63,825 bases of DNA, filler included, from Myxococcota bacterium (GCA_049322255.1; 5 parts of 5 records of this genome joined end to end with filler, not necessarily neighbours in it); one strand, 5' to 3'. Shown: positions 1-13,487, numbered from the whole stretch's first letter. Program-made: numbers and translations. The notes: generated by a model not told the origin, from the sequence alone.

Positions 1-210
1 CCCAGCGTTGATCAAATTTCGATCGTTGACGCAACTTCGATCTCCACTCATCGGCCGAAGGCCGAAAATTCGGCTCCGGAGGAAACAATGCGATCTGACT
101 TCTCACCCATTAGGGACATCCCCTAGTTCGGCTAGCCCCCTGAATAGAACGACTTCGGCGCCACGTTTCGTGAGCTCCGGTAGGGGGGCGGCTACACTCG
201 CGCTCGCACC

Positions 211-1335
211 ATGAAGCGCGCACTTCGGGTGGTGGGCCTCATCTCGGGCACGAGCGCCGACGCGGCGGAGGCAGCGCTGTGCGAGATCTCCGGCACCGGC
301 AAGAGCGCCCGGGTGAAGCTGCTCTCCCACGTCTCCGCGCCCTTTCCTCGCTCCTTGCGCGAGCGAATTCTTTCTGCGCACACCGCCCGCGACGTGTGCG
401 AGCTCGACTTTCTCTTGGGTGAGCGCTTCGCCGACGCCGCATTGCGCACGATCGCCGCCGCACAACTTCGACCCCAGGACGTCGACCTCATCGGCTCGCA
501 CGGCCAGACGGTGGTGCATCTGCCGCCCTCCCTCTCCCCCACCCCTTCCACGTTGCAGATCGGCGAGGCGGCGATCATCGCCGAGCGCACCGGCATCGCC
601 ACGGTGAGCGATTTTCGTGCGCGCGACATCGCTGCCGGCGGCGAGGGCGCTCCGCTGGTGCCTTACGCCGATTGGGTGCTCTTTCGGAAAAAGGGAGGGG
701 TGCGCGCGCTGCAAAACATCGGTGGCATCGCCAACCTGTCCATCGTCTCCGACCGACTGGAAGACACGGTGGCTTTCGACACCGGACCAGGGAACATGCT
801 CCTCGACGGGCTGGCGCGGCTGGCCACCCGGGGCAAAGCAGCGTTCGATCGCGACGGCCGCATGGCAAAGAAAGGCATCGTCATCTCTTCGCTGCTCGAC
901 GAGCTCCTCGCCCACCCGTTTCTCCGCCGACGCCCGCCCAAGAGCGCCGGGCGCGAGCTGTTCGGTGACGAGCTGGTGGTCTCGCTGTGGGCGCGCTTCG
1001 GACGGCGGCCGTTCGACCTTCTCGCCACCGCCGCCGCGTTCACCGTCGAAGCCACCGCGCGCGCCTACGAGCGCTGGGTGCTGCCCCGGCACGCGCTCGA
1101 AGGGGTGTACGTCTCCGGTGGAGGCAGCCGAAACCCGGTGCTGATGAAGGGCCTGGCCGCTCGCCTGGCGCCGCTGCCCGTGCGACCGCTCGATGTGCTG
1201 GGCTTTCCAGAAGGAGCCAAGGAGGCGGCATGCTTTGCCCTGCTCGCTTCCGAGTTCTTCCACAGGACGCCGCAGAACGTGCCCTCGGCCACAGGAGCTA
1301 AACGCCGCGTCGTGCTCGGCAAGCTCACCCCGTGA
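211..1335 (+). CDS. anmK: anhydro-N-acetylmuramic acid kinase
   Basis: Motifs GLISGTSADA, GSHGQT, DFRARDIAAGGEGAPLVP, NIGGIAN, FDTGPGN, GGGSRN, KEAACFA. Confidence 0.95.
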   Translation: MKRALRVVGLISGTSADAAEAALCEISGTGKSARVKLLSHVSAPFPRSLRERILSAHTARDVCELDFLLGERFADAALRTIAAAQLRPQDVDLIGSHGQTVVHLPPSLSPTPSTLQIGEAAIIAERTGIATVSDFRARDIAAGGEGAPLVPYADWVLFRKKGGVRALQNIGGIANLSIVSDRLEDTVAFDTGPGNMLLDGLARLATRGKAAFDRDGRMAKKGIVISSLLDELLAHPFLRRRPPKSAGRELFGDELVVSLWARFGRRPFDLLATAAAFTVEATARAYERWVLPRHALEGVYVSGGGSRNPVLMKGLAARLAPLPVRPLDVLGFPEGAKEAACFALLASEFFHRTPQNVPSATGAKRRVVLGKLTP

Positions 1336-1369
1336 GGGGCGACAGCCGAATGCAGTTACACTGACCGCC

Positions 1370-2338
1370 GTGAGCGTCGCGCTGCTCTTCATCGACGGAG
1401 TCGGCATTGGCCGCAAAGACCCGGCAGTCAACCCGCTCGCCTCGCTGAGCTCGCTCTTGTCGCACTTCGTCGACGCTCCCGGAGAGGCGCTTCCCGACGG
1501 CGGAGAGATCCAACCCGTTGACGCCACCTTCGGCGTGCGCGGGCGCCCTCAGTCGGCGAGCAACCAGACAGCCATACTCACGGGCGAGCCGGCTCCGGCG
1601 CTCATCGGGCGCCACGTGCTGGGCTTTCCCACCCCTCCCTTGCGCGGGCTGCTTTTGGCCAAATCGATTGTCCGCCGCATGGTCGAGGCGAAACGCACCG
1701 CGACCTTCGTCAACTGCTACCCCGCCGGCTACCTCGACGCCTTGGGGCTCGCACGCCGCCCCTCCTCCGCCGCCGACGTGTCGATTCCTCCCAGAGCCGT
1801 ACGCCGACTCCGTCCCTCGGCCACCACGCTCGCCTTCGCCGCCGCTCACGTGCCACTGCGCACCCTCGACGACGCGCGGGCCGGGCTGGGCCTGACCAAC
1901 GACATCGACGGCGAGCGCGCCAACGCCCGCGGTTTCTCCGTGCCCCGCCGCACCCCCGAAGAGGCGGCTCAGGTCTTCTGGCGCACCGCTGCCGGCGCCG
2001 ACTTCGCCCTCTTCGAGCACTACCTGGCCGATGAGGCGGGCCACGCACGTGATTGGCCCGCGGCGCTCGCAGCCCTGACGACCTTCGACTGCTTCGCCCG
2101 CGCAGTCATCGCCCAAAGGCCGGCGGGAGCGCAAGTGCTCGTGTGCAGCGACCATGGCAACGTCGAAGACCTTTCCACCCGCAGTCACACCTTGGGCCAG
2201 GTGCCGGTGCTCGGCTTCGGGCTACCCAAAGGAGCGCTCCGCTCGCTACGAAGCGTCGCCGACGTCGGCGTGCTCGTGCTCGAGTTGTTGGGCCTCGAAG
2301 GGCGAGCTGTCCCCGCCCAGCGCGAGGCTGCCTCGTGA
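1370..2338 (+). CDS. alkaline-phosphatase-superfamily metalloenzyme (phosphoglycerate/phosphopentomutase-like)
   Basis: FIDGVGIG, PQSASNQT (Ser nucleophile position), DEAGH, SDHGN and HT metal ligands; GTG start at 1370 inferred. Confidence 0.8.
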   Translation: MSVALLFIDGVGIGRKDPAVNPLASLSSLLSHFVDAPGEALPDGGEIQPVDATFGVRGRPQSASNQTAILTGEPAPALIGRHVLGFPTPPLRGLLLAKSIVRRMVEAKRTATFVNCYPAGYLDALGLARRPSSAADVSIPPRAVRRLRPSATTLAFAAAHVPLRTLDDARAGLGLTNDIDGERANARGFSVPRRTPEEAAQVFWRTAAGADFALFEHYLADEAGHARDWPAALAALTTFDCFARAVIAQRPAGAQVLVCSDHGNVEDLSTRSHTLGQVPVLGFGLPKGALRSLRSVADVGVLVLELLGLEGRAVPAQREAAS

Positions 2339-3195
2339 GGCATCTGGTCGCGCTGGCCACGCTCGGGCTGGGCGCCTGTGCGGGGCCGCTGTCGGCACTC
2401 CAGCACCGCACCTCCTTCACTACCGAAGTGGGGCGCTTCGACATCGACTATGCACGAGGCGGCGAAGCATCCGCGGCGAGCATTCGGGGCGCGGTGATGC
2501 GTGCCGGGCCCAAGCTGGCGTACTGGGGAGGCCTGCGCGAGCCAGTCGCCATTCGTGTGCTGGCGACCCACCGCTTGCTCGAGGAGGCAGTCAACCGTCC
2601 CGGCTACCCGTGGCTGCGGGCGTGGGCCCGCTACGACGAAGTCTTCGTGCAAGCGCCCCGCACCTGGACCCTCTTCGGCGCCAGCCAGGCCGAGGTGGAC
2701 GAGCTGATGCTGCACGAGCTCACCCACTGCGTGATGTACCAGCTTGCCGCCACCCGAACCGGGTGGACGCGTAAAGAAATCCCGCTCTGGTTTCGCGAAG
2801 GCATGGCGTCGGTCACCGCGAATCAGGAGTACCGCTGGCCGGCGCTTGAAGAGCTGGCGCGCTACTACGAGAAGAATCCAGGTACCGATCCGGTGGGCGA
2901 CCCCGAGAGCCTCTACCAAGGCCAAAGTGACATCGTGTACGGCGCCGCGCACCACACCTTCGCCTTCCTGGTCCGGCGGTATGGAGACGCTGCGGTGCGC
3001 GAAGTCCTCCGGCGCATGCAGGAGGGAGCAGCATTCCCCGAGGCGTTCGAGCAAAGCGTCGGCCTCTCCGCGCAGACGTTCATCGACGACTTTCGGCGCT
3101 TCGTGCGGCTGCGAGGTTTCCACCAGCGCCGGCGCCAGCGCGTGCCCCACCCGGCGACGCCCGTGAGCGAGACAACCAGCCCAAGCACACTCTGA
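2335..3195 (+). CDS. putative lipoprotein, gluzincin/peptidase MA-like
   Basis: Lipobox-like LGAC; HELTH...WFREGMA zinc motif; GTGA overlap with the upstream stop. Confidence 0.75.
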   Translation: MRHLVALATLGLGACAGPLSALQHRTSFTTEVGRFDIDYARGGEASAASIRGAVMRAGPKLAYWGGLREPVAIRVLATHRLLEEAVNRPGYPWLRAWARYDEVFVQAPRTWTLFGASQAEVDELMLHELTHCVMYQLAATRTGWTRKEIPLWFREGMASVTANQEYRWPALEELARYYEKNPGTDPVGDPESLYQGQSDIVYGAAHHTFAFLVRRYGDAAVREVLRRMQEGAAFPEAFEQSVGLSAQTFIDDFRRFVRLRGFHQRRRQRVPHPATPVSETTSPSTL

Positions 3196-3198
3196 GAT

Positions 3199-4332
3199 TC
3201 AAGCGGCGGACGCGTAGCCGGCGCGGCGGGTGCGCACTGCGGCCAAGAGCATCGCCCCCACGCCGAAGAGCATCGCGACGAAGAGCACCACCGCTCCCAG
3301 AACGGGAATGGCTCCGGTCAGGGTGAGAAGCGAAAGCCCCACGAGCAAGGCGAAGAGCAGGTGCGCGCCGCCCTTGCCGAACCGCGCCAGGAGCCAGCGG
3401 CCCACGTACATCCCCACCACCGGGAAGCTGGCCACGAGCGCCAACCCGTAGAGCGCAAAAGCGAACAGGCCGAGCCACCATCCCCCGAGGAGCAACCCCA
3501 CGGCGAAGATCAGAGCGGCGACCAGCGGACCGGCGAAGAGGAAGAGCGCTCCCAAGCCCAGGCTGCGCCACGGAGCCTCGGGAAGCGTTCCCACCGCGCG
3601 CTGCGAAAAGCGTGGAACGAGCAGCACCAGCGCCAGCCCGAGCGCGAAGAGGCCGACCATGGCGCGCAGCCAGAGAATGAACGGCACCAGCGTGCCTCTG
3701 CCGCCTCGGGCCTCGACCTCGGTGTACTGGATGTCGCCCCGAACCAGGGCCGCCTCGGCGAGCTTCGCCGGGCGCTGACCCCGATAGACGAGGTCTCCCT
3801 CGATTCGCGCCTCGTTCCCCAGCGCAAGCTGCCCCACCGCCGCGCGCACGTCTCCCCCCACCCTGGTGTTGACGTCGAGCTCGCCGGTGCCGGCCCACAC
3901 ATCGCCGCCCACGGGACCTTGAAGCACCACGTTTCCTGCCCCCGCGAGCACGTCTCGCCCCACCTGCGCGCCGGGCGCGATGAGCACGCGACCGGCTCCC
4001 GCGACCACGTCTTCACCGACCTTGCCCCGCACGGCGACCTCTCCAGATGTCGCGCGAACGCTGCCCTGAACCTCACCGAAAATGTTGGTCGAGCCGCTGG
4101 CGGAGAGCACGTCTCCCTGGACGTTGCCGATCACGTTCACCGTTCCACCGACCGCGACCAGGTCTCCTTCGATGCGGCCCAAGATGTCGACCGTGCCACC
4201 GGTGACGTAGAGATCTTCCGGAACGACCTGATCCTGGGGGATGACCACCGTTTCCCCGCGTCGAAGCTCGGCCACCGCCGCGCTCCCCCACAACAGGGCC
4301 AGCAAGAGCATCGCGCCGCGAGGTCCAAACAT
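3199..4332 (-). CDS. membrane protein with bactofilin-like/beta-helix repeats and C-terminal TM helices
   Basis: Signal peptide, repeated V.GDV...G.V.I.G units, about 5 hydrophobic helices at the C-terminus. Confidence 0.75.
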   Translation of the reverse strand: MFGPRGAMLLLALLWGSAAVAELRRGETVVIPQDQVVPEDLYVTGGTVDILGRIEGDLVAVGGTVNVIGNVQGDVLSASGSTNIFGEVQGSVRATSGEVAVRGKVGEDVVAGAGRVLIAPGAQVGRDVLAGAGNVVLQGPVGGDVWAGTGELDVNTRVGGDVRAAVGQLALGNEARIEGDLVYRGQRPAKLAEAALVRGDIQYTEVEARGGRGTLVPFILWLRAMVGLFALGLALVLLVPRFSQRAVGTLPEAPWRSLGLGALFLFAGPLVAALIFAVGLLLGGWWLGLFAFALYGLALVASFPVVGMYVGRWLLARFGKGGAHLLFALLVGLSLLTLTGAIPVLGAVVLFVAMLFGVGAMLLAAVRTRRAGYASAA

Positions 4333-4577
4333 CCGCACGTCCTGTAGCTGCGCACGTCGCCTCCAAGACGCAGGCGACACTCACGCGGCCGAATGGCTGC
4401 CGGCTCCCTAACCCTAACCCCAATGCCGAGAAGCTAGGGGACGTTCGAGGCGCGCCTATCCCGGGGGGCCCCGAAGCCACACTTGTTGTTGCTATGACGC
4501 ACACCGTGCAACTTTTTTGCGCTAACGCTCATCGAGAACAACACCGCTCCGAAGCCGCCCCGACCGTACGGGGCTGT

Positions 4578-4663
4578 CTCTAACGAATAGGCGTTTGCGC
4601 GGCGACCGTCGAGTTGAGCATGGCCGCCGCTCTGTCGCGTGCCGCGCAAACGTCGGGTTGAAC
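4578..4663 (-). repeat. attC-like imperfect palindrome (86 bp)
   Basis: Minus strand reads GTTCAAC...GTTAGAG; perfect 12-bp arms CGTTTGCGCGGC (4592-4603) / GCCGCGCAAACG (4641-4652). Confidence 0.65.
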
Positions 4664-4883
4664 GAAGCCGCGGCACGGCCCCTGCTATTGGGCACCAAGC
4701 GCGGCGGTGATTGCTGGGGGCAGCGTTGATCTCGGCAACCCGATCGGTCGTGATGGAGCGAGATCGGGTTCAGCCCCGGTGCAGTAGGCCGTCACGTGCC
4801 TGGCAATTGGGTTCGCGGGCAGATCTTCCCGCACGGGCCCCGCCGCTCGCTCGTCGTGACGCTGGTTGGGATCGGCATCGAAG

Positions 4884-5636
4884 TCATGACGTGTCCCTGA
4901 GCGGCGGAGCGGCGAGGGGCCTCGAGGCAATCTCACCGCCGCACTTCTGGCAGCGGGTGAGGTCGATGCCGACCAGCCGGAGAAGCAGCGAGCGGGCCGT
5001 GACGAGCTTGGTGTTCACGTTGCCGGGAGCGAGCAATCCGTAGTGGCGGAGCTTCACGTAGCCATGGGGCAGCACGTGCAGCAGAAATCGACGGAGGAAT
5101 TCATGGGGATGCAGGGTGGCGGTCTGGTCGCCTCGCGTGCGGAAGGTGACCGCCTCACCTGTAACGGAGGTGAGCCGGTGGTTCGACAGGCCTACCCGGT
5201 GCGTGTAGCGACCGAGATATTGGTACACCGACTCCGGTCCCGCGAAGGGCGGCTTGGCGTACGACACCCATTTCGTCCGGTACAGCTTCCGCCGCAGACG
5301 CCGCCAAGCTGTGTCTGGATCGGCTGCGTCGCCGAGGCCTTCAACGCCACGCACCTCGAGCCGGCCATCGTGGGTGAGGCCCAGCTGGGCGCCCAGCCGC
5401 TTCTCGTCATTCCCGAGCGCGAGCAGCGTCTGGCTGCCCGCGGCGAACATCGCGTCGAAGAAGATCTCGCGGTTTCGTATCGCCAGACCAGCGAGCAGCT
5501 CGTCCGGCACGGTGAAGACGCCGTGGAAGTAGTCGATGGGCAGAAGCCTTTCGAGGAGGCCGCCTTCCAGCGACCGCGCCTGGGTCAGCGCCTGGCATTG
5601 GGGACAGTGCCGGTTCCGGCACGAGTGGAACACCAC
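4884..5636 (-). pseudogene. IS91-family transposase, internally deleted
   Basis: HSCRNRHCPQCQ zinc-binding motif, YFHGVFTVP, YLGRYTHRVGLSNHRL (Y2 motif), EFLRRFLLHVLP.G...LRHYGLLA; N-terminus and HUH segment missing. Confidence 0.9.
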
Positions 5637-5639
5637 CTG

Positions 5640-6486
5640 CTACCCGAGGGGGCCGCCCTTGGGCGTCCCGGGCACGTCGAGGGCGCTCTTGACCTGGGCG
5701 ATGCGCTGGCTGCTCACCTGGGCATAGCGCGCCATCGTCCGGATGGACTGGTGCCCCAGCACCACCTGGATGAACCGGATGTCGTTCCCCATCTCGTGCA
5801 GATGGTGGCGAACGAGTGCCGAAGGGTATGGGCGGTGACGCGCTTCTTCAACCTCACCCGCTTGACGGCGTTCTTCAGCGGCCCACCGCACCGCGGTCGG
5901 GTGCAGGTGCGTCCCCTTGCCCCGCCCGGGGAACAGCCACCCGTCAGCGGGCCGCGCCCGTTTCCAGTACTCGCGCAACATCGTCAGCAGCCGCTCGGAC
6001 AGCATCACGTACCGGTCCTTGCGCCCCTTCCCCTGCCGCACGTGGATAAGGCCTCGCTTGCTGTCGATGTCCTCCACCCACAGCCGGCACACCTCGTTGT
6101 TCCGTAGCCCCGCCCCGTAGGCCGTGGTGGGCGCCATCGCCGGCACCAGCGACTTCACCGCCGCCAGCACCTCCTCGACCTCGGTACCGCTCAGGATGTT
6201 CGGCTTCCTGTGCGGCACCTTCGGCCACGGCAGCCGCTCGGCCACTTTGGGGCGGTCCAGCGTCACCCCGTAGAGAAACCGCAGCGCGGCGACGTTCATC
6301 TTCAGCGTCTCCGGCCCGGCCCCCTTGAGCTGCAGGTTCTCGAGGTACCGTCTCGCCCAGCTCCCTTGGCGAGGTCATGTGGTACCGCACGAAGTGGCAG
6401 CAGCAGCGCAGGTACTCCTTCTGCGTCGTCGCCGCGAGGTTCTTCAGCGCCAGGTCCCGAGCCATCTTGTTGTACAGTTCGCCTAT
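5640..6486 (-). pseudogene. tyrosine recombinase/integrase with N-terminal SAM-like domain, frameshifted
   Basis: YGAGLR, GKGRKDR, LGH...ARY; HTLRHSFAT lies in another frame; N-terminal domain in a shifted frame; ATA in place of ATG after RBS AAGGAG (6494-6499). Confidence 0.9.
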
Positions 6487-6620
6487 CTCGTTGCTCCTTG
6501 TGGTTGGTTGTTGTCGGGCGTCGGCGGCTACCGGCGCCCGGTCCCACAAGGCTCGATGGGAATGGCCCGCTGGCCGAGAAGGATCAGATCTCTCCAGCAG
6601 CAGTCGGTACGGACTTCGCA

Positions 6621-7304
6621 ATGGGTTTCAGTGTCGAAAATGTCCTCGTTCGAGGTCGACCCTCGGACAATGACCTCGAGGCGTGGGTGCGCCTGGCTTT
6701 GCCGCGCTTGAGGCGGCCCGAGCTGCAATTCCCCGGCGAGAGGCATCCTCGATTCGTAGCGGTCAATCTGAAACTGGAGGCAGCGGGCCGACTCGACGCT
6801 GAACGTGCAGAAGACCTTACGCTCCTCTGGATCGAAGCAAGCGATGCCTTGCCGAGCGTCAACCCCGATCAGTCGTTGATGAGCTTCGGCCAACTATTGC
6901 GGATGCTTGGCATCAAGAAGCGCGATCCAATGGAGTGGGCCATGCTGCGAGAAACAGCCACCTTGCCACGACTACCCCAAGATCCAGCAGGCGCAGATGC
7001 TGCCCGGGGAAATCCGTTTCTTCTGTCACTTGCGCTGATCGCGAAGTCGCACGGCCATGACGCCGCGTTCTTTGCTGACGCTTCCGTGTCCGATTCGGGA
7101 TGTCTCGTAATTCCAGACCGGGATGGCGTGACCTGGACCGAAGCAGATTGCAGTGCCAAGAGGCAACGGGCTAACGCGCTTCTTCAAACGACGTTCCCCG
7201 GGGTCGCACCCGACATTGACGAACTGCAATGGGTGGGGCCTGGAAAATCGTATTGGTCTCGGCCTCTCGTGCGCGCTGGCCGCCGCGTTGATTCGTGGCC
7301 GTAA
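6621..7304 (+). CDS. hypothetical protein (227 aa)
   Basis: ATG-initiated ORF filling the gap between int and tldD, with visibly lower GC; no recognisable motif. Confidence 0.55.
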   Translation: MGFSVENVLVRGRPSDNDLEAWVRLALPRLRRPELQFPGERHPRFVAVNLKLEAAGRLDAERAEDLTLLWIEASDALPSVNPDQSLMSFGQLLRMLGIKKRDPMEWAMLRETATLPRLPQDPAGADAARGNPFLLSLALIAKSHGHDAAFFADASVSDSGCLVIPDRDGVTWTEADCSAKRQRANALLQTTFPGVAPDIDELQWVGPGKSYWSRPLVRAGRRVDSWP

Positions 7305-7348
7305 CGATCAACTCCGCCGCTTCTCCCACTGCCACGAATCGGCTTCGA

Positions 7349-7377
7349 TCAACCCTCCCCCTTGGGGAGTGGGGAGC
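7349..7377 (-). repeat. degenerate REP-like hairpin, copy 1
   Basis: CCCCACTCCCCAAGGGGGAGGGTTGA on the minus strand; contains the tldD stop codon. Confidence 0.45.
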
Positions 7378-9052
7378 GGGCGGACGGACTCTGCAGAAGC
7401 GGTGGCCGGTCTTTCCCCTCGAGCGCGCGCTGCAATTCGATCTCCTGGAGCAACGTCGCCGGCGCGGCCGCAGACACCGGAACGTGGCCGCTCTCGGCGC
7501 CGCAAAAACCGTTGAACACGCCCATGCGCTTGCCGGTGGCCATGATGCGGTTGATGGAGGAGAGAGGCGTGCCGACGATCTCCACTCCGCGCACCAGGGT
7601 TTCTTTGCCGTCGCGCACGTCGACCCGGTACACCATGCGCGGAATGCCCTTGAACGCCTGGTACCCGAACGACGAGGTGTTGGTGTTACCGCCGGTGATG
7701 TCGCGAATGATGAGGCCGTAGGGCTTCTTCTGCTGCTTCGCCTCGGCGATGAGCATGCGCTTGAGCTCGGCGTCGGAGACCGTCTTGCTCGACTGCACCA
7801 CGAGGTTCGCCATGCGGGCGATCGGCTTGCGGTTGCCCTGGCTGCGCCCGTGCCCGTTGGATTTGGGGAATTCCTCCACCGGGTGGCGGGAGAGCAGGTA
7901 GCTCTTGAGCACTCCGTTCTCGACGAGGAGTGTTCGTTGCGCGCGCACGCCCTCCTCATCGAACTGGTAGAAACCGTTGAGCGGCTTGCCCTCGAGGGTG
8001 CGCTGGGTCGGATCGTCCACGAGGGAGATGAACGCCGGCAGCACCCGTTTGCCGATCTGCCCGCGAAAAGTCTTCCCCTCGGTGTCGTTGTGCTGCCGCT
8101 CGCCTTCGAGGCGGTGACCGACGGCTTCGTGGAAGAGCACCCCCGCCGCCTCCGGCTCGAGAATTGCGGGGCCGGTGTAGGGGTCGATCGCCGGCGCCTG
8201 CCGCAGCGCCAAGAGCTCTTGAATCATCTTCTCCACTGCCGCGGAAATCGCTTGGTCGGTGGGAAGCTGCGCCTCCAGCGGCGCGTACCAGTCACGCGAG
8301 TTGTCGAGCAGTTGGCCGTCCTCCGCGCGGGTGACTGCGAAGACGTTGATCGAATACAGCGTCTCCTCGGTGAGAATGCGGCTGCCCTCGGTGGAGACGA
8401 AGTAGCGAACCACCTTGTTGGCGCTCACCCGCACCTCCGAGTCGAACAGCTGCGGGTGGGCGTTGAACTTGGCGGAGAGCGACCGGCTCAAGCTCACCCA
8501 CCGGTCGCGGTGAAAATCGAAGGGAATGGCGGGTTGGATGAAGACCTCCGCCTTCTCCTTGGAGAACGACGCGGGGCGGTTGGGCTCTTCGACGGTGTAG
8601 ACGTTCTCGCCCTTCTTCTTGAGGTAGTTGAAGAGCGCGTTCTTGTACTTCTCGTCGGTGACGAGCCACAGCGCGGTTCGCAGCGCCATCGGATCGTCGT
8701 CGATCGGCCCGTCCTTGCGAGGCAAGTAGCTGTTGCCCTTGAGGGAGAAGCTGAAGTCCATCTCCTCGGCCATCGAGTTGTCGAGCTCGTAGCTGCCCAC
8801 GCGCACGTCGACGTAGAGCTTGCGGTCTTTTGCCGACTCGTCCTGGAAGAGGGCGCCGTAGCGGGCGGTGATCTCGCGCTGCTGGTAGTCCTTTAGCTGG
8901 TAGCTGATGAAGTAGGGCGGCGCGTTTTCCTTGAGGGTGAGGTCCGACTGGTTCCGCTTCAGCTCGACGGTCATCGCGTCGAGCAGCGTCTGGCGTGGGT
9001 CGGGGCTCGGGGCAGCAGCGAGGAGGAACGTGAGAGTGAATGGGAGGAGCAC
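7349..9052 (-). CDS. TldD/PmbA family metalloprotease with predicted signal peptide
   Basis: HEAVGH, DDPT, FDEEG, NGHGR, RMANL, C-terminal CGAESG; start is GTG 9052 or 9061. Confidence 0.9.
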   Translation of the reverse strand: MLLPFTLTFLLAAAPSPDPRQTLLDAMTVELKRNQSDLTLKENAPPYFISYQLKDYQQREITARYGALFQDESAKDRKLYVDVRVGSYELDNSMAEEMDFSFSLKGNSYLPRKDGPIDDDPMALRTALWLVTDEKYKNALFNYLKKKGENVYTVEEPNRPASFSKEKAEVFIQPAIPFDFHRDRWVSLSRSLSAKFNAHPQLFDSEVRVSANKVVRYFVSTEGSRILTEETLYSINVFAVTRAEDGQLLDNSRDWYAPLEAQLPTDQAISAAVEKMIQELLALRQAPAIDPYTGPAILEPEAAGVLFHEAVGHRLEGERQHNDTEGKTFRGQIGKRVLPAFISLVDDPTQRTLEGKPLNGFYQFDEEGVRAQRTLLVENGVLKSYLLSRHPVEEFPKSNGHGRSQGNRKPIARMANLVVQSSKTVSDAELKRMLIAEAKQQKKPYGLIIRDITGGNTNTSSFGYQAFKGIPRMVYRVDVRDGKETLVRGVEIVGTPLSSINRIMATGKRMGVFNGFCGAESGHVPVSAAAPATLLQEIELQRALEGKDRPPLLQSPSARSPLPKGEG

Positions 9053-9091
9053 GCCCCTCACCCTACCCCTCTCCCAGAGGGAGAGGGAACC
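9053..9091 (-). repeat. REP-like hairpin, copy 2
   Basis: CCCTCTCCCTCTGGGAGAGGGGTAGGGTGAGGGG fills the whole intergenic gap. Confidence 0.8.
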
Positions 9092-10417
9092 TTAGGCTTT
9101 GACGATGTTGTCGCGAAAGCGGCCGGCGGCGCGGGTGGCGTTCCGGGTGTCGATGACCAACCGGGCGTGCGACGCGACCTCGGCATAGTCAATTCCCGAG
9201 TGGTCGGTGAGGATCAGCACGGCGTCGTAGTGGGAGAGGGGTTCCGCTCCCAGTGAGACCGAGCGCATCGGGCGCAGAATGCCGTGACCTGCCATCAGCT
9301 CGGGCACGTATGGGTCGTGGTAGTCGACTCCCGCCCCCCGCTCCTCGAGCAGGCGAATGACCTTGAGCGAGGGGCTCTCTCGCATATCGTCGACGTCCTT
9401 TTTGTAGGCGACCCCCAGCACGAGCAGCTTGGCGCCGTGCAGCGCCTTCTTGTGCGTGTTGAGCGCCTCCATGGTGCGCTGCACCACATAGAGCGGCATC
9501 TGCGCATTCACCTCGCCAGCGAGCTCGATGAATTTGGTCTGGAAGTCGAACGAGCGCGCCTTCCAGGTCAGATAGAAGGGGTCGATGGGAATGCAGTGCC
9601 CGCCCAGGCCCGGCCCCGGGTGAAAGGGCATGAAGCCGAACGGCTTGGTCGACGCCGCGTGAATGACCTCCCAGACGTCGATTCCCATGCGGTCGCAGAG
9701 CATCTTCAGCTCGTTGACCAGCGCGATGTTCACGCAGCGGAAGATGTTCTCCAAGAGCTTGGCCAGCTCGGCGACCCGGGTCGAGGACACCGGCACCACC
9801 TGGGCGAGGGCCGCGCCGTAGAGCGTCTGCGCTGCCTCCAAGCACGAGGGCGTACAGCCTCCGACGACCTTCGGAATGGTGCGGGTGTCGAACTTCCCGT
9901 TCCCCGGGTCTTCGCGCTCAGGGCTGAAGGCGAGGTGGAAGTCCCTCCCCACGCGGAGGCCGTTCCCCTCGAGGAGCGGCCGCAAGACCTCCTCGGTGGT
10001 GCCTGGGTAGGTGGTGGACTCGAGAACGTAGAGCTGGCCCTTGCGCACGTGGGGAGCCAGCGCTTGCCCGCTCTTCTCGATGAAGCTCAAGTCCGGCTCG
10101 CGCGCTGCCGTGAGCGGCGTGGGCACGCAAATCACCACGCAGTCCAGCTCGCCGGCTCGCGCGAAGGTCGAGGTGGCCGAAAAGCGCTTTTCCTTTTGGG
10201 CCCGTGCCACCCGCTCGGCAGAGATGTGACGCAGGTAGCTCTCTCCCCTTCCCAGCGCCGCCAGCTTGCGCGCGTCGAGGTCGATGCCGGTCACCGGAAA
10301 GCCTGCCTCGGCGAAGGTCAGCCCCAACGGCAGGCCCACGTATCCAAGGCCGACGATTCCAACTTTCGCCTCGCGCGTGCGAATTCGGTCGAGCAGTGTG
10401 TTTGGCATGACTCTCAT
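9092..10417 (-). CDS. nucleotide-sugar dehydrogenase (UDP-GlcNAc/ManNAc 6-dehydrogenase, WbpA/WecC-like)
   Basis: GLGYVGLP, CVPTP, ESTTYPGTT, SPEREDPGN, GPGLGGHCIPIDP, D.RESP. Confidence 0.93.
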   Translation of the reverse strand: MRVMPNTLLDRIRTREAKVGIVGLGYVGLPLGLTFAEAGFPVTGIDLDARKLAALGRGESYLRHISAERVARAQKEKRFSATSTFARAGELDCVVICVPTPLTAAREPDLSFIEKSGQALAPHVRKGQLYVLESTTYPGTTEEVLRPLLEGNGLRVGRDFHLAFSPEREDPGNGKFDTRTIPKVVGGCTPSCLEAAQTLYGAALAQVVPVSSTRVAELAKLLENIFRCVNIALVNELKMLCDRMGIDVWEVIHAASTKPFGFMPFHPGPGLGGHCIPIDPFYLTWKARSFDFQTKFIELAGEVNAQMPLYVVQRTMEALNTHKKALHGAKLLVLGVAYKKDVDDMRESPSLKVIRLLEERGAGVDYHDPYVPELMAGHGILRPMRSVSLGAEPLSHYDAVLILTDHSGIDYAEVASHARLVIDTRNATRAAGRFRDNIVKA

Positions 10418-10424
10418 GGTGACG

Positions 10425-10460
10425 CCCCTCACCCCAACCCTCTCCCAGAGGGAGCGGGGG
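10425..10460 (-). repeat. REP-like hairpin, copy 3
   Basis: CCCCCGCTCCCTCTGGGAGAGGGTTGGGGTGAGGGG; contains the upstream gene's TGA. Confidence 0.8.
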
Positions 10461-12501
10461 CAGTCGCCAAAATCACCCACGTCAGGCGTTCGGGCAGGTG
10501 CCCTGTTCGCTGCGCCAGAAGGCACGCCGCCGGCCGAGTGACGCCGTAGGCAGGTGAGTACCTTGCGCCCGTCACGCGCACATTCCAGCCCGCCGAGAAG
10601 AGAACCACCACACGGCCAAAGGTCGCGACCCAAGGCTGCAGCTCATCCAACCCCTCTTCGAGCGCACCGGCGCGGTGGAGCTCGTCCTGGGTGGCGGCCC
10701 GCAGCTGAAGCTCGCCATCAGGCGCGTGCAAGCGCGAGCGAAGATCGTGCCTCTTGGCTCCCTCGAACCGATCGACCACCGTCAGCGCGCGCTTCTCCTT
10801 GTGGAGCGTTAGACACCGCTCGATCCAGACGGGATCGGCCAGCCGTTCGTAGCCGCGGTGGAACGCCACCAGGCGATCGGTATGCGCGTCGGCGGAAAGG
10901 CGCGCCTCACACGATGCGCCCTCGGGCAGCGCGAACGGCCGGGCTGGGTCGAAGGGCCAGATCTCCTCCCTGTCCACCTGAGGCGTGTTGTGCGCCGCAG
11001 TCGCGCGCAGCTCGTTGCGTAGCGTGGGATCGCGGGTGTAGCTCCCCGTGCCGAGATCGACGATCACCGGCTCGCCGTCGACGTGCAGCTCGAACGAGAG
11101 GTGGTCGTTGTGGCTGTGGCCGCCGAGGCCGCGCTGGCCGTTGGGGCCTGCGCGCACCGCCACGGTGAGCCCTCCTCCGTGCAGCACGTACAGCCCGCCC
11201 GCCCGGGAGGAAAACGGCCGCCGCCGCGCCGCACAGGAAAGCGCTCCCCACCGCTGTACGCCTTCGGCACCGCACAGCCAGGCGAGCTCATCGGGAGGCG
11301 GCGCACCCTCCCGTTTGAGCGCCGGCTCGTCGAAGAGCGCCGCCCCCAACGACGCGAGGTAGCCGTGCGAGAGGTCGTCGCGGTCACAAAGCGCCAGCAC
11401 CCGCCCCGAGTCGTTGTCGCCAATCTGCGGAGCTCTCCCCCCTTCCGAGCAGTACCCTTCGACGGCGAAGAACATTCGCTTCAGGCGCCCGGCGAAGGAG
11501 CTCCCTAAGTCCACTCCATTGGTGCGCGCGGCGAGGTGAGCCAAGGCGAACATCTCGGTGGCCAAGCGGTGGTACGGCACCGAGCCTTCGAAGGAGAACC
11601 CGTCCTCGTGCACCTGGGCCTGCATCTGCGCCGACAGCCCCCGAGCTGCCAGCTGGGTACGCCGGGTGGCTCCAGGCAAGTGGGGAAAGGCGAGGGAGAC
11701 CAGAAGCAAGCCGAGGTAGCCGGCCACGAGGTGGTTGTTGGGCACCACGTTGCCGTCTTCCAGATGAACCTCGACGAAGGCGCAGTGGTCCAAGAGCGCG
11801 CAGAAGAGCTCCAGCGCCTCATCCACAGCCATGCCCGCTCCGGAAAACATCCTCATCGCCATCGCGAGGTTGGCTGCCCGCAGCGCGACCTCCATCGGGC
11901 AGGCCCACTGAATGCCGACGCCCATCGGATTGGCGCGCACGAACGCATGCGCCTGGGCCGCAAACTGCCGCCGGTAGACTTCCTCGCCGCTCACCCACGC
12001 GCCCTGACCCAAGGCGACGAGCTGCTCCAGCCGGCCGAGTGCCCAAGGAAACTTCGGGTCCAGGCCAGGCGTGAACAAAGACAGCTCGAGCGCGGGAGCG
12101 CGGGGGTAGCGCATGCCGCTCGCCGCATCGAGGCTCCAGTCGATCGGTGCGTGCGGCCCGAAATGGACCTGGGTGCCAAAAACGTCGAACGAGCGCTGGG
12201 CGGCTTTTTCCGCCCGGGCGTGGGCGCGCTCCCTGGCGCCGGGTACCCTGCCGAGCGCGGCAACCACCTCGTCGCGTCGCGAGCCATCGCACCACAGCGG
12301 GTGGGCGCTCTCGAAAAGGTGACCGGCCGCCTCCCGAGGCGCTTTCCCCAGCGAGCTCAAAAGCCGCCGCACCGTCCACGGGTGCGCGCCACCGTAAAGA
12401 GTCACCCGGAGCGCACGGTTGGCTCGCCTCGCCACCGCGCGCGCCGCGTGGGAGGGGCCAAGCTGCTCGACGAGTGTCGCATAGTGACCGAGCGCGCCCA
12501 T
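10429..12501 (-). CDS. heparinase II/III-family protein
   Basis: W.CPMEVALR, NNHL, DG..FEGS..YHRL, IGDNDSGR, GHSHNDHLSF, D.GT..Y, R.TAAHNT. Confidence 0.88.
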   Translation of the reverse strand: MGALGHYATLVEQLGPSHAARAVARRANRALRVTLYGGAHPWTVRRLLSSLGKAPREAAGHLFESAHPLWCDGSRRDEVVAALGRVPGARERAHARAEKAAQRSFDVFGTQVHFGPHAPIDWSLDAASGMRYPRAPALELSLFTPGLDPKFPWALGRLEQLVALGQGAWVSGEEVYRRQFAAQAHAFVRANPMGVGIQWACPMEVALRAANLAMAMRMFSGAGMAVDEALELFCALLDHCAFVEVHLEDGNVVPNNHLVAGYLGLLLVSLAFPHLPGATRRTQLAARGLSAQMQAQVHEDGFSFEGSVPYHRLATEMFALAHLAARTNGVDLGSSFAGRLKRMFFAVEGYCSEGGRAPQIGDNDSGRVLALCDRDDLSHGYLASLGAALFDEPALKREGAPPPDELAWLCGAEGVQRWGALSCAARRRPFSSRAGGLYVLHGGGLTVAVRAGPNGQRGLGGHSHNDHLSFELHVDGEPVIVDLGTGSYTRDPTLRNELRATAAHNTPQVDREEIWPFDPARPFALPEGASCEARLSADAHTDRLVAFHRGYERLADPVWIERCLTLHKEKRALTVVDRFEGAKRHDLRSRLHAPDGELQLRAATQDELHRAGALEEGLDELQPWVATFGRVVVLFSAGWNVRVTGARYSPAYGVTRPAACLLAQRTGHLPERLTWVILATAPAPSGRGLG

Positions 12502-12559
12502 TCGCAGCGAAGGGACGGAGCAAAGCCCGCGCCACGGCACGCCGACGGCGGCGAAGCGC

Positions 12560-13165
12560 CTACTGGGGCCGTGGCTGAAAGAGTTTCAGGCGGATGAGCC
12601 GCCGGGCGATGAGCACCGTCGCCAGCACCAACGCGATGCCCAAGAGTAGATACTTTCCCCCCGAGCGCAGCTCGTCCACCACCTGAGGCCCGAAGCGGTA
12701 GCCCAGATAGATCACCACCGGCGCGGTCACGAGCCCGGCGAGCCCGTCGGCGACGAGGAAGCGACGCGCGCTCATGCCGCTCATCCCCGCGAGCAAGAAG
12801 GTCGGAGCACGAAGACCGGGGAGGAAACGGGCGGTGAACACCGTGAGCGCCCCGTGGTGATCGAAATGCCTGGCGGCCCAGGCGACGCGAGACGGCCGAA
12901 GCAGACGGCCCACCCAGCGGTGCTGCGCGGCACGTGGGCCCAGCCGCTTACCGATGTGAAAGAGCAGCCCGTCTGCGGTGAGCAGGCCCGCGTACCCGAC
13001 CGCGAACATCACTGGCAGGTTGGCGCCCTCCCCAGCGGCCAGCCAGCCACCGGCGAGGAGAATCAGCTCCTCGGACACAGGCAGCCCCACCCCGGTGGCA
13101 GCGAGCAGCGCGAACACCGCCGGGTAGGAGAATGCCTGCACCCAGCTCAACACGTGCCCGTCCAC
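12560..13165 (-). CDS. DedA family membrane protein
   Basis: G.PVSEELILLAGG and ARFLPGLR motifs. Confidence 0.92.
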   Translation of the reverse strand: MDGHVLSWVQAFSYPAVFALLAATGVGLPVSEELILLAGGWLAAGEGANLPVMFAVGYAGLLTADGLLFHIGKRLGPRAAQHRWVGRLLRPSRVAWAARHFDHHGALTVFTARFLPGLRAPTFLLAGMSGMSARRFLVADGLAGLVTAPVVIYLGYRFGPQVVDELRSGGKYLLLGIALVLATVLIARRLIRLKLFQPRPQ

Positions 13166-13261
13166 GATGGGTGAAGCTGAGCACGGGGCTGTGGGTCAGG
13201 AACCCCCCATCGCAAGCCAGCAAATTGACCAGCAATTGCCAGCAGGTATACCTTACGACAC

Positions 13262-13385
13262 CGATGTGCGAAGTGAGGCTGTCACTGACCAGCAAGTGCG
13301 GAAACGCCGATGAGGCGTGGACAAGTCTTGCCGGCGGAAGCAGGGCGACCGGGGGAGCGGCCTCAGGCTGCGACCTGCGAGAGCC
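13262..13385 (+). mobile_element. 124-bp terminus of a multicopy element (copy A, runs into the contig end)
   Basis: Identical to the reverse complement of 26792-26915; flanks are unrelated. Confidence 0.8.
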
Positions 13386-13387
13386 CT

Positions 13388-13487
13388 NNNNNNNNNNNNN
13401 NNNNNNNNNNNNNNNNNNNNNNNNNNNNNNNTTAATTAATTAANNNNNNNNNNNNNNNNNNNNNNNNNNNNNNNNNNNNNNNNNNNN
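13388..13487. other. artificial contig spacer (N run + TTAATTAATTAA)
   Basis: 100-nt spacer with a six-frame stop linker. Confidence 0.99.

Follow-up and report, generated by a model that had tools for sequence, protein, structure and literature searches.

Ends, fold and target preference of IS91-like elements with a tyrosine recombinase gene, traced from a decayed copy in a Myxococcota genome

The window, that is, the whole stretch of DNA analysed here (63,825 nucleotides, filler included, from a Myxococcota bacterium), consists of several joined contigs with N runs at 13388-13487, 26692, 39423 and 52058, and only positions 1-13387 correspond to contig C116. In this contig, an element containing a tyrosine recombinase gene and an IS91-type Y2 transposase gene (tnp) interrupts the end of a host gene (Table 1). 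The first-pass annotation, made from the sequence alone, had reported this tandem, and both genes were identified by profile (PF00589/PF13495 and PF04986/PF14319) on the minus strand, each of them as a pseudogene. The element had been assigned the span 4578..6499; its left end was actually found at 7353, with a passenger ORF lying inside, so the element measures 2,769 bp and not 1.9 kb. The hairpin that had been described beyond the transposase gene is present as an 86-nt structure with a perfect 12-bp arm; it occupies 4578-4663 and is separated from the tnp stop by 221 bp. On its own, this hairpin is of modest stability (z -2.4 and -2.1; 4 of 200 shuffles were as stable), and an Rfam search gave no match for it.

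Table 1. Features of the element and of its insertion site, in window coordinates
Feature	Position	Strand	Description
Whole element	7352-4584, 2,769 bp	minus	Left end, passenger ORF, recombinase gene, tnp and right end
Left end, terIS-like	7329..7353	minus	Host G at 7353, then TT, 13-bp box partner and short decayed palindrome
Passenger ORF	6621..7304	plus	227 aa, antisense to recombinase gene and tnp, between left end and recombinase leader
Tyrosine recombinase pseudogene	5640..6486	minus	PF00589, PF13495 piece; IS91-associated, IntI-related, no I2 insertion
IS91-type Y2 transposase remnant	4884..5636	minus	PF04986, PF14319; NF033538 186 bits (cut-off 125)
Internal 13-bp box	4657..4669	minus	Ends in R''-like GTTCAAC; matches the left end of the family in reverse complement
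Inner hairpin	4592..4652	minus	12-bp perfect arms 4592-4603 and 4641-4652, variable loop
Right terminus, oriIS-like	4582..4591	minus	CCTA-x3-GTT as in IS1294
Host TldD/PmbA (tldD-like) gene	7349..9061	minus	Last codons are the insertion site

The left end differs by one substitution from the family's box partner (GATC for GAAC), and its homology to the left end of an intact relative, L005, extends over 26 bp at 88%. Ten 13-mers like it, with at most one mismatch, were found in the 4.85-Mb genome to which the window belongs, the expectation being about 0.001 per kb and strand. At the right terminus, the G at 4584 is the last base that surely belongs to the element, as the TT at 4583-4582 is common to the target. 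The insertion site is not an attC; it consists of a GTT located immediately 3' of a short G/C palindrome, and the left end overlaps the stop codon of tldD, which now reads TGA and would read TAG with the element removed. Short G/C palindromic repeats are present on both sides of tldD, at 9050-9090 and 7352-7400, the first of which matches many unrelated contigs. A motif like CCCCATAG/CCCAATAG lies at 4670-4694, about 25 nt before the box; it is kept across phyla and reduced in non-autonomous copies.

The recombinase gene has ATA at the position of its start codon and three frame breaks, with frameshifts near 6350 and at 5885-5815 that put the H-x-x-R motif out of frame. Compared to L005, tnp has lost about 215 bp encoding the first 72 aa and about 190 bp encoding the HUH motif, and the Y-x-x-x-Y motif is kept. 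Contigs containing this stretch from a single sequencing run, which was possibly the source of the assembly, showed no other letters at the lesions. This copy is dead, both genes being pseudogenes, and the idea of a self-mobilising cassette does not hold for it: with a frameshifted recombinase and a transposase without start and HUH motif, it cannot move itself. No empty allele was found, as the tldD orthologues at 11 loci of relatives (other genera, +/-1.5 kb) lack the same downstream gene, and three sequencing runs contained no empty site, no circle junction and no joint at the element ends. No RNA run was listed among those containing the stretch. The closest relatives of the element come from myxobacterial genomes.

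A scan of a genome collection gave 604 candidates, of which 422 were relatives, and the best 80 of the 422 were kept as GTDB loci. Among these best 80, the recombinase gene is located upstream of tnp in 68, and contig ends truncate 8 of the remaining 12; a left end was found in 57, a right end in 61 and both ends in 48. Downstream of tnp, the relatives have a box ending in GTYCAAC, then a stem in which sequence and loop vary, and finally a terminus where homology stops at GTT. This right-end architecture is common to Myxococcota, Betaproteobacteria, Bacteroidota, Fibrobacterota and Planctomycetota, with ATT in place of GTT at the terminus in Chryseobacterium/Kaistella. The right ends of the 80 GTDB loci were chosen by a pattern that requires TT; in a myxobacterial set selected without that requirement, TT was present in 33 of 34. 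The boundaries of relatives are G|TT at the right end and, upstream of the recombinase gene, G|TTGAAC plus a short palindrome at the left end, the left ends of metagenome loci being read by eye. Two checks proposed along with the first-pass annotation came out in its favour: homology among relatives stops at the GTT at 4582-4584, as set in advance, and the hairpin is kept in relatives with compensatory changes. The sequence of the left end corresponds, in reverse complement, to the 13-bp box located within the right end.

The triplet at the ends varies by subfamily, being AAC/GTT, AAT/ATT, AAG/CTT or none. Three elements of alphaproteobacterial type (L032, L046 and L163) keep the recombinase and the hairpin and have no AAC/GTT core. 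An exact pattern for further copies of this GTT-less type was found in 1 of 401 genomes, with three weak plasmid matches, and a degenerate pattern had no match in five genomes. Of 301 genomes of the class, 8 contained an exact right-end pattern, and of 401 genomes of the phylum, 16 contained a left-end pattern; a search of viral contigs with one left-end pattern gave no match. In a Bradyrhizobium plasmid (L256:407), a right end is joined directly to a left end and the triplet occurs once, which constitutes a natural tandem or circle-type junction. Elsewhere (G175, contig C164, 102849-103401; L265), a truncated recombinase lies between two left ends in facing orientation, at a distance of 530 bp from each other.

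In the recombinases of intact relatives, R132, K157, H223, R226 and H249 are invariant, and Y258 is present in 20 of the 21 rows of the alignment. The IntI in this alignment has an I2 insertion, which is absent in 20 of 20 element recombinases, and intact relatives scored 174-177 bits against TIGR02249, below the cut-off of 265 bits. For the predicted structure of the L001 recombinase (pLDDT 88.5), the best structural match was the integron integrase 2A3V (E 7.6e-17, TM 0.74). A tree obtained by a quick method, whose branching order is without support, placed the element recombinases apart from IntI and XerC/D, and IntI was neither inside nor beside the IS group with support. Recombinases associated with IS91 elements have been described as the closest homologues of IntI, lacking its insertion (bioRxiv 10.1101/542381), and IntI is reported to require the I2 helix to avoid a second, lethal exchange (PMC7790495). 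For a recombinase without I2, another block against the second exchange has to be assumed, and the constant bulge of 3-5 nt described below could substitute for it. In CTXphi, mismatches block the second strand exchange.

The pairing of the joined ends was analysed in 48 distinct sequences (58 before removal of duplicates), with a total of 540 Watson-Crick pairs; the mismatches comprised 65 G-T on the bottom strand, 3 G-T on the top strand and 16 others. The bottom-strand fold was more stable than that of the top strand in 45 of the 48. Among 21 distinct box/end pairs, G-T pairs numbered 29 on the bottom strand versus 3 on the top, spread over eight positions; compensatory changes were seen at box positions 2, 3, 6 and 13. 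Related copies inflate all these counts, as well as those for the targets given below; the fold pattern recurs across phyla. The spacer between the outer and the inner stem is 3-5 nt longer on the terminal side in all 48.

Extrahelical bases are a defining feature of attC sites (PMC5027507, PMC4889954), in which folding of the bottom strand is favoured (PMC5027507). In the canonical L-box register of attC (spacing 5 and 5-6 nt), none of the 48 joined ends reached 6 of 7 pairs, whereas the same register gave 7 of 7 on the host sites flanking L043, L045 and L076. The joined ends of GTT-type relatives contain RYYYAAC/GTTRRRY cores with the AAC-GTT triplet. In the window, where the ends are not joined, the 3' core consists of GTT plus host AGAG, and the GTTAGAG proposed as an R'-like box is thus in part host flank; the R''-like box pairs instead with the left end. 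The attC-like character given to the hairpin was borne out in outline, cores and bottom-strand bias, but not in geometry, as the spacer is asymmetric and in the canonical register only 2 of 7 pairs of the L box form in the window, in agreement with the caveat that no extrahelical base was obvious in the L box. The joined-end site is best described as attC-like in outline and strand bias, but not as an attC, because of the missing L-box register and the asymmetric spacer.

Members of the IS91 family are defined by a terIS upstream, where a cleavage tetranucleotide lies beside a subterminal palindrome, and an oriIS downstream of tnp (PMC13181058). According to the same article, four active members need GTTC, CTTG or GTCC adjoining oriIS, the functional intermediate is a bottom-strand ssDNA circle, the only circle that inserts, and IS91 TnpA alone inserts the bottom-strand ssDNA junction, the upstream ORF being regulatory. 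In three recombinase-free plasmid copies of IS91/IS1294 type (L155-L157), the cleavage tetranucleotide and a palindrome like the one seen here mark the start, and the other end reads CCTA-x3-GTT or close to it; the target GAAC follows in two of the three, and the internal 13-bp box is absent from all three. By inspection, the element ends match those of L155-L157 and are recognisable as IS1294-type terIS and oriIS, so the GTT core of the first-pass annotation is also an ordinary oriIS terminus. The GTTC that it associated with IS91 ends and targets has a counterpart here at the ends, GTT and GAAC being ordinary IS1294 oriIS and terIS termini, but not at the target: none of the 81 right flanks has GAAC or CAAG beside oriIS, and one has GGAC. 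Orf121 of IS91 was also considered as a relic of the recombinase and ruled out, as there is no similarity.

On the left side, the base before TT is G in 70 of 72. At 67 sites with both ends, a set that includes rhizobial plasmid copies and metagenome loci and in which the register of L176, L177 and L181 is uncertain, the bases at the three positions that precede GAAC on the left agree with the box in 67, 67 and 64, and with the element's own end in 65, 67 and 49. Box and own end are discordant at the third base in 17 of the sites, and in 16 of these the host base is that of the box, 11 of the 16 being Bacteroidota kin. The match to the box is two bases longer in rhizobial targets (6 of 6). Two to four nucleotides are common to both junctions and may represent a crossover core rather than a target-site duplication. 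A cut inside the triplet would be favoured, anecdotally, by two single copies only, L183 and L176, in which the junctions differ at the last base as such a cut would predict.

The passenger ORF of the window has a GC content of 60%, compared to 64-69% in its neighbours, replaces about 63 bp of the intact relative and has four homologs at 58-61%. Its protein belongs to no Pfam or NCBIfam family, and its Atlas structure scores were <0.9, with TM <0.5 by query. The 57 other left ends of the GTDB set are followed by no passenger (115-198 bp from the end to the recombinase). Passengers possibly enter through nested copies and a later deletion. A second decayed copy in the same genome (contig C90, 1236-2310; L240, L266) has a left end, a recombinase gene cut after about 93 aa, and a different antisense ORF of 178 aa with a lipoprotein-like start and no Pfam family; this copy lies 137 bp from a tRNA-Glu gene. 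In a related genome, G167, 18 right and 26 left ends were found, and 11 of the 13 regions fetched proved to be units of about 1 kb with both ends and without recombinase or transposase, one right end being damaged and one left end seen by alignment only. These units carry an antisense gene for a four-helix bundle (PF05635 in L129), and their multiplication shows that the ends alone can suffice for spread. The same genome has five copies of autonomous type (L241-L244) with tnp interrupted at the same codon by inserts that encode tyrosine recombinases (RIT-like, by eye).

The best model for these elements is copy-out by the HUH transposase followed by paste-in by their own recombinase, which we judge about equally likely to be right or wrong. 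It builds on features read from the sequences themselves: the ends, their pairing, the strand bias, the target rule, the intact active sites of relatives, the spread independent of IntI described below and the non-autonomous copies. As in IS91, the HUH/Y2 transposase would nick the bottom strand at the oriIS-like right end, replication would displace the strand, and a single-stranded circle would be closed by a further nick, at the terIS-like left end. In the circle, the left end would pair with the internal 13-bp box, a pairing visible in the sequence, and close a long hairpin with the AAC/GTT triplet in the stem, an asymmetric bulge of 3-5 nt and a second stem. The tyrosine recombinase would then use this fold as its site, cut at or within AAC as IntI does, and carry out one strand exchange with a double-stranded host site that pairs with the box (GTT in most lineages), the junction being resolved by replication. 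A single-stranded circle made by the HUH enzyme and integrated by the recombinase had been proposed at the outset; bottom-strand folding and the loss of the IS91 target speak for it, but the missing I2 helix, which poses its greatest problem, the IS1294-like termini and the absence of insertion into integron arrays in this lineage do not.

Exchange by tyrosine recombinases requires pairing of the invading 3'-side strand, and HUH transposases read the 5' side. Paste-in by the recombinase is favoured because the host bases that pair with the box lie 3' of the bottom-strand cut, on the invading strand. The shared TT hides the crossover, so a transposase nick at GTTC, the terIS cut of IS1294, fits the same junctions. 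A serious alternative, which we consider less probable, is that the HUH transposase performs both steps, with box and hairpin as its recognition and guide structure; the recombinase would be accessory and might resolve cointegrates or tandem copies, sharpen termination, or regulate as does Orf121 in IS91. Analogues for such a route exist, as the target of IS200/IS605 elements is chosen by base-pairing and Helitron2 elements have asymmetric terminal repeats. The homology of the termini to the oriIS and terIS of IS1294, an element without recombinase, agrees with this alternative, as do the insertion by IS91 TnpA alone mentioned above and the motifs kept in the long tnp ORFs of relatives (HUH in 62 of 70, Y-x-x-x-Y in 65 of 70). 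Moreover, bottom-strand folding would be seen with any ssDNA enzyme, the recombinase has no I2 helix and some subfamilies have no GTT core. However, insertion does not restore the oriIS nick site, because the target bases that are conserved here are found 3' of the presumed nick in the bottom strand and not 5' of it as in the four active IS91 members (PMC13181058); the box accompanies the recombinase, being absent from the three recombinase-free controls, and Orf121 is unrelated to the recombinase.

It is improbable that the recombinase both excises and integrates the element through double-stranded sites, with box and left end as two binding sites and the HUH enzyme only amplifying or maintaining the circle. 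The inverted 13-bp pair with its covariation would also fit duplicated protein sites, IntI is reported to integrate at double-stranded GWT sites (bioRxiv 10.1101/2022.09.11.507474), and the junction in L256 is of the expected kind. Nevertheless, the strand-asymmetric tolerance of G-T (65 vs 3) would have no reason in duplex DNA, and the intact terIS/oriIS-like termini and the high copy numbers fit copy-out.

The targets differ by lineage: plain GTT in myxobacteria, attC- or attI-like sites in some Bacteroidota and Betaproteobacteria, and palindromes in rhizobia. Hairpins closing on the junction were assessed by a home-made anchored-arm score (threshold 8), which misses some sites visible by eye (L014, L067, L075). 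By this score, the left flanks were attC-like in 7 of 19 Bacteroidota copies (control 6/314), in 3 of 21 from beta/gammaproteobacteria (control 7/255) and in 0 of 6 from other groups (control 0/92). Myxobacterial copies are not in attC sites (1/32 vs control 7/179), and the insertion site in the window scored 3.5. Several betaproteobacterial copies have an attI-like flank in common, and L078 adjoins a divergent IntI. No integron integrase above the cut-off was detected in any of the five myxobacterial genomes with copies, including that of the window (99.6% complete), which contains no attC array and a single match of canonical geometry. Homing to attC is thus lineage-specific, since its enrichment is restricted to Bacteroidota and some beta/gammaproteobacteria and copy-bearing myxobacteria have no IntI, and the myxobacterial lineage spreads without this enzyme. 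It is highly improbable that a host integron integrase moves the element as a passive cassette, with the hairpin as a genuine attC: the relatives located exactly at attC- or attI-like GTT sites, the IntI beside L078 and the cassette structure reported for ISShvi3 (PMC9229058) would fit, but canonical L-box geometry is present at 0 of 48 junctions, the many ends of G167 and the copies in four more genomes are all without IntI above the cut-off, and neither the myxobacterial sites nor the window's own genome point to attC.

Other insertion sites showed particular features. The rhizobial copies L158 and L246-L254 are all in a GGATT|CC-like site at short palindromes, L158 being directly followed by an IS630 transposase gene. 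Two myxobacterial copies (L003, L004) split long host palindromes, landing in the loop by eye, and L138, L142 and L146 are located in tandem repeats. In a Vibrio furnissii plasmid (L159:3153-3584), an arr gene comes directly after an intact element, the right flank of which resembles the start of a cassette.

ISShvi3, ISWz1 and others in ISfinder are IS91-family members with a recombinase gene and have the two-gene layout found here. In the openly readable literature, nothing was found on their ends, fold, target rule or cargo copies beyond a remark on one ISShvi3 copy as a cassette-like structure in a Shewanella integron (PMC9229058); ISfinder entries or Figure S2 of that article may show end sequences. 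Judging from these sources, the pair of recombinase and IS91-transposase genes and the ISShvi3 remark were already known, and non-attC targeting, non-autonomous cargo copies and the box-target rule are added here. The anatomy of the ends makes both the role of the recombinase in IS91-family elements and the origin of ssDNA recombination by IntI testable by existing conjugation assays. Such ends can carry unrelated genes around the genome without an integron; the copy in the window is itself a fossil, and the intact relative on the Vibrio plasmid lies directly before arr.

A further reading, tentative and in our view rather unlikely, is that these elements represent a living model for proto-integrons. 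A rolling-circle transposase would supply the folded bottom strand, which a sister of IntI without I2 would already integrate at G|TT, and pairing to the 13-bp box would set the target, which would make target choice programmable. The enzyme-free derivatives that carry genes would be cassettes without an integron, and attC sites and cassettes would descend from joined oriIS/terIS ends. For the origin of ssDNA recombination by IntI, the lack of intermediates has been noted (PMC7790495).

Compared to the IS91 family (IS91, IS801, IS1294, IS1294b), the elements have in common a Y2 HUH transposase with a zinc finger, GAAC and a short palindrome on the left, CCTA-x3-GTT on the right and an ORF directly upstream that abuts tnp. 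They differ in that this ORF encodes a tyrosine recombinase, in the internal 13-bp box and long hairpin, and in the host bases conserved on the terIS side instead of a GTTC/CTTG target at oriIS. With the integron attC/IntI system they share the G|TT boundary, the AAC/GTT triplet in a stem, an unpaired spacer, a second stem, a variable loop and the bottom-strand bias, and their insertion at short GTT sites is like that of IntI at attG (GWT) sites. Unlike integron cassettes, they have no L-box extrahelical geometry, an asymmetric spacer (3-5 nt) and a conserved 13-bp outer box, carry inside the unit a recombinase without I2, have passengers antisense to the top strand, and form no array. In CTXphi and similar elements, a folded strand of HUH-made ssDNA is integrated by a single XerCD exchange at dif and resolved by replication. 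The route proposed here would share with these and other Xer-integrated ssDNA elements the rolling-circle ssDNA, the folded strand, the one exchange and the resolution by replication, but they borrow XerCD and dif from the host, whereas the present elements bring their own recombinase and have many targets. The ss-IMEXs are mentioned among such Xer-integrated elements (PMC7790495). Finally, some relatives resemble the attC-homing elements, namely the IS1111-attC group and the group IIC-attC introns, in lying at a fixed base of attC-like hairpins, but the enzymes are different and the myxobacterial lineage of the window does not home to attC.
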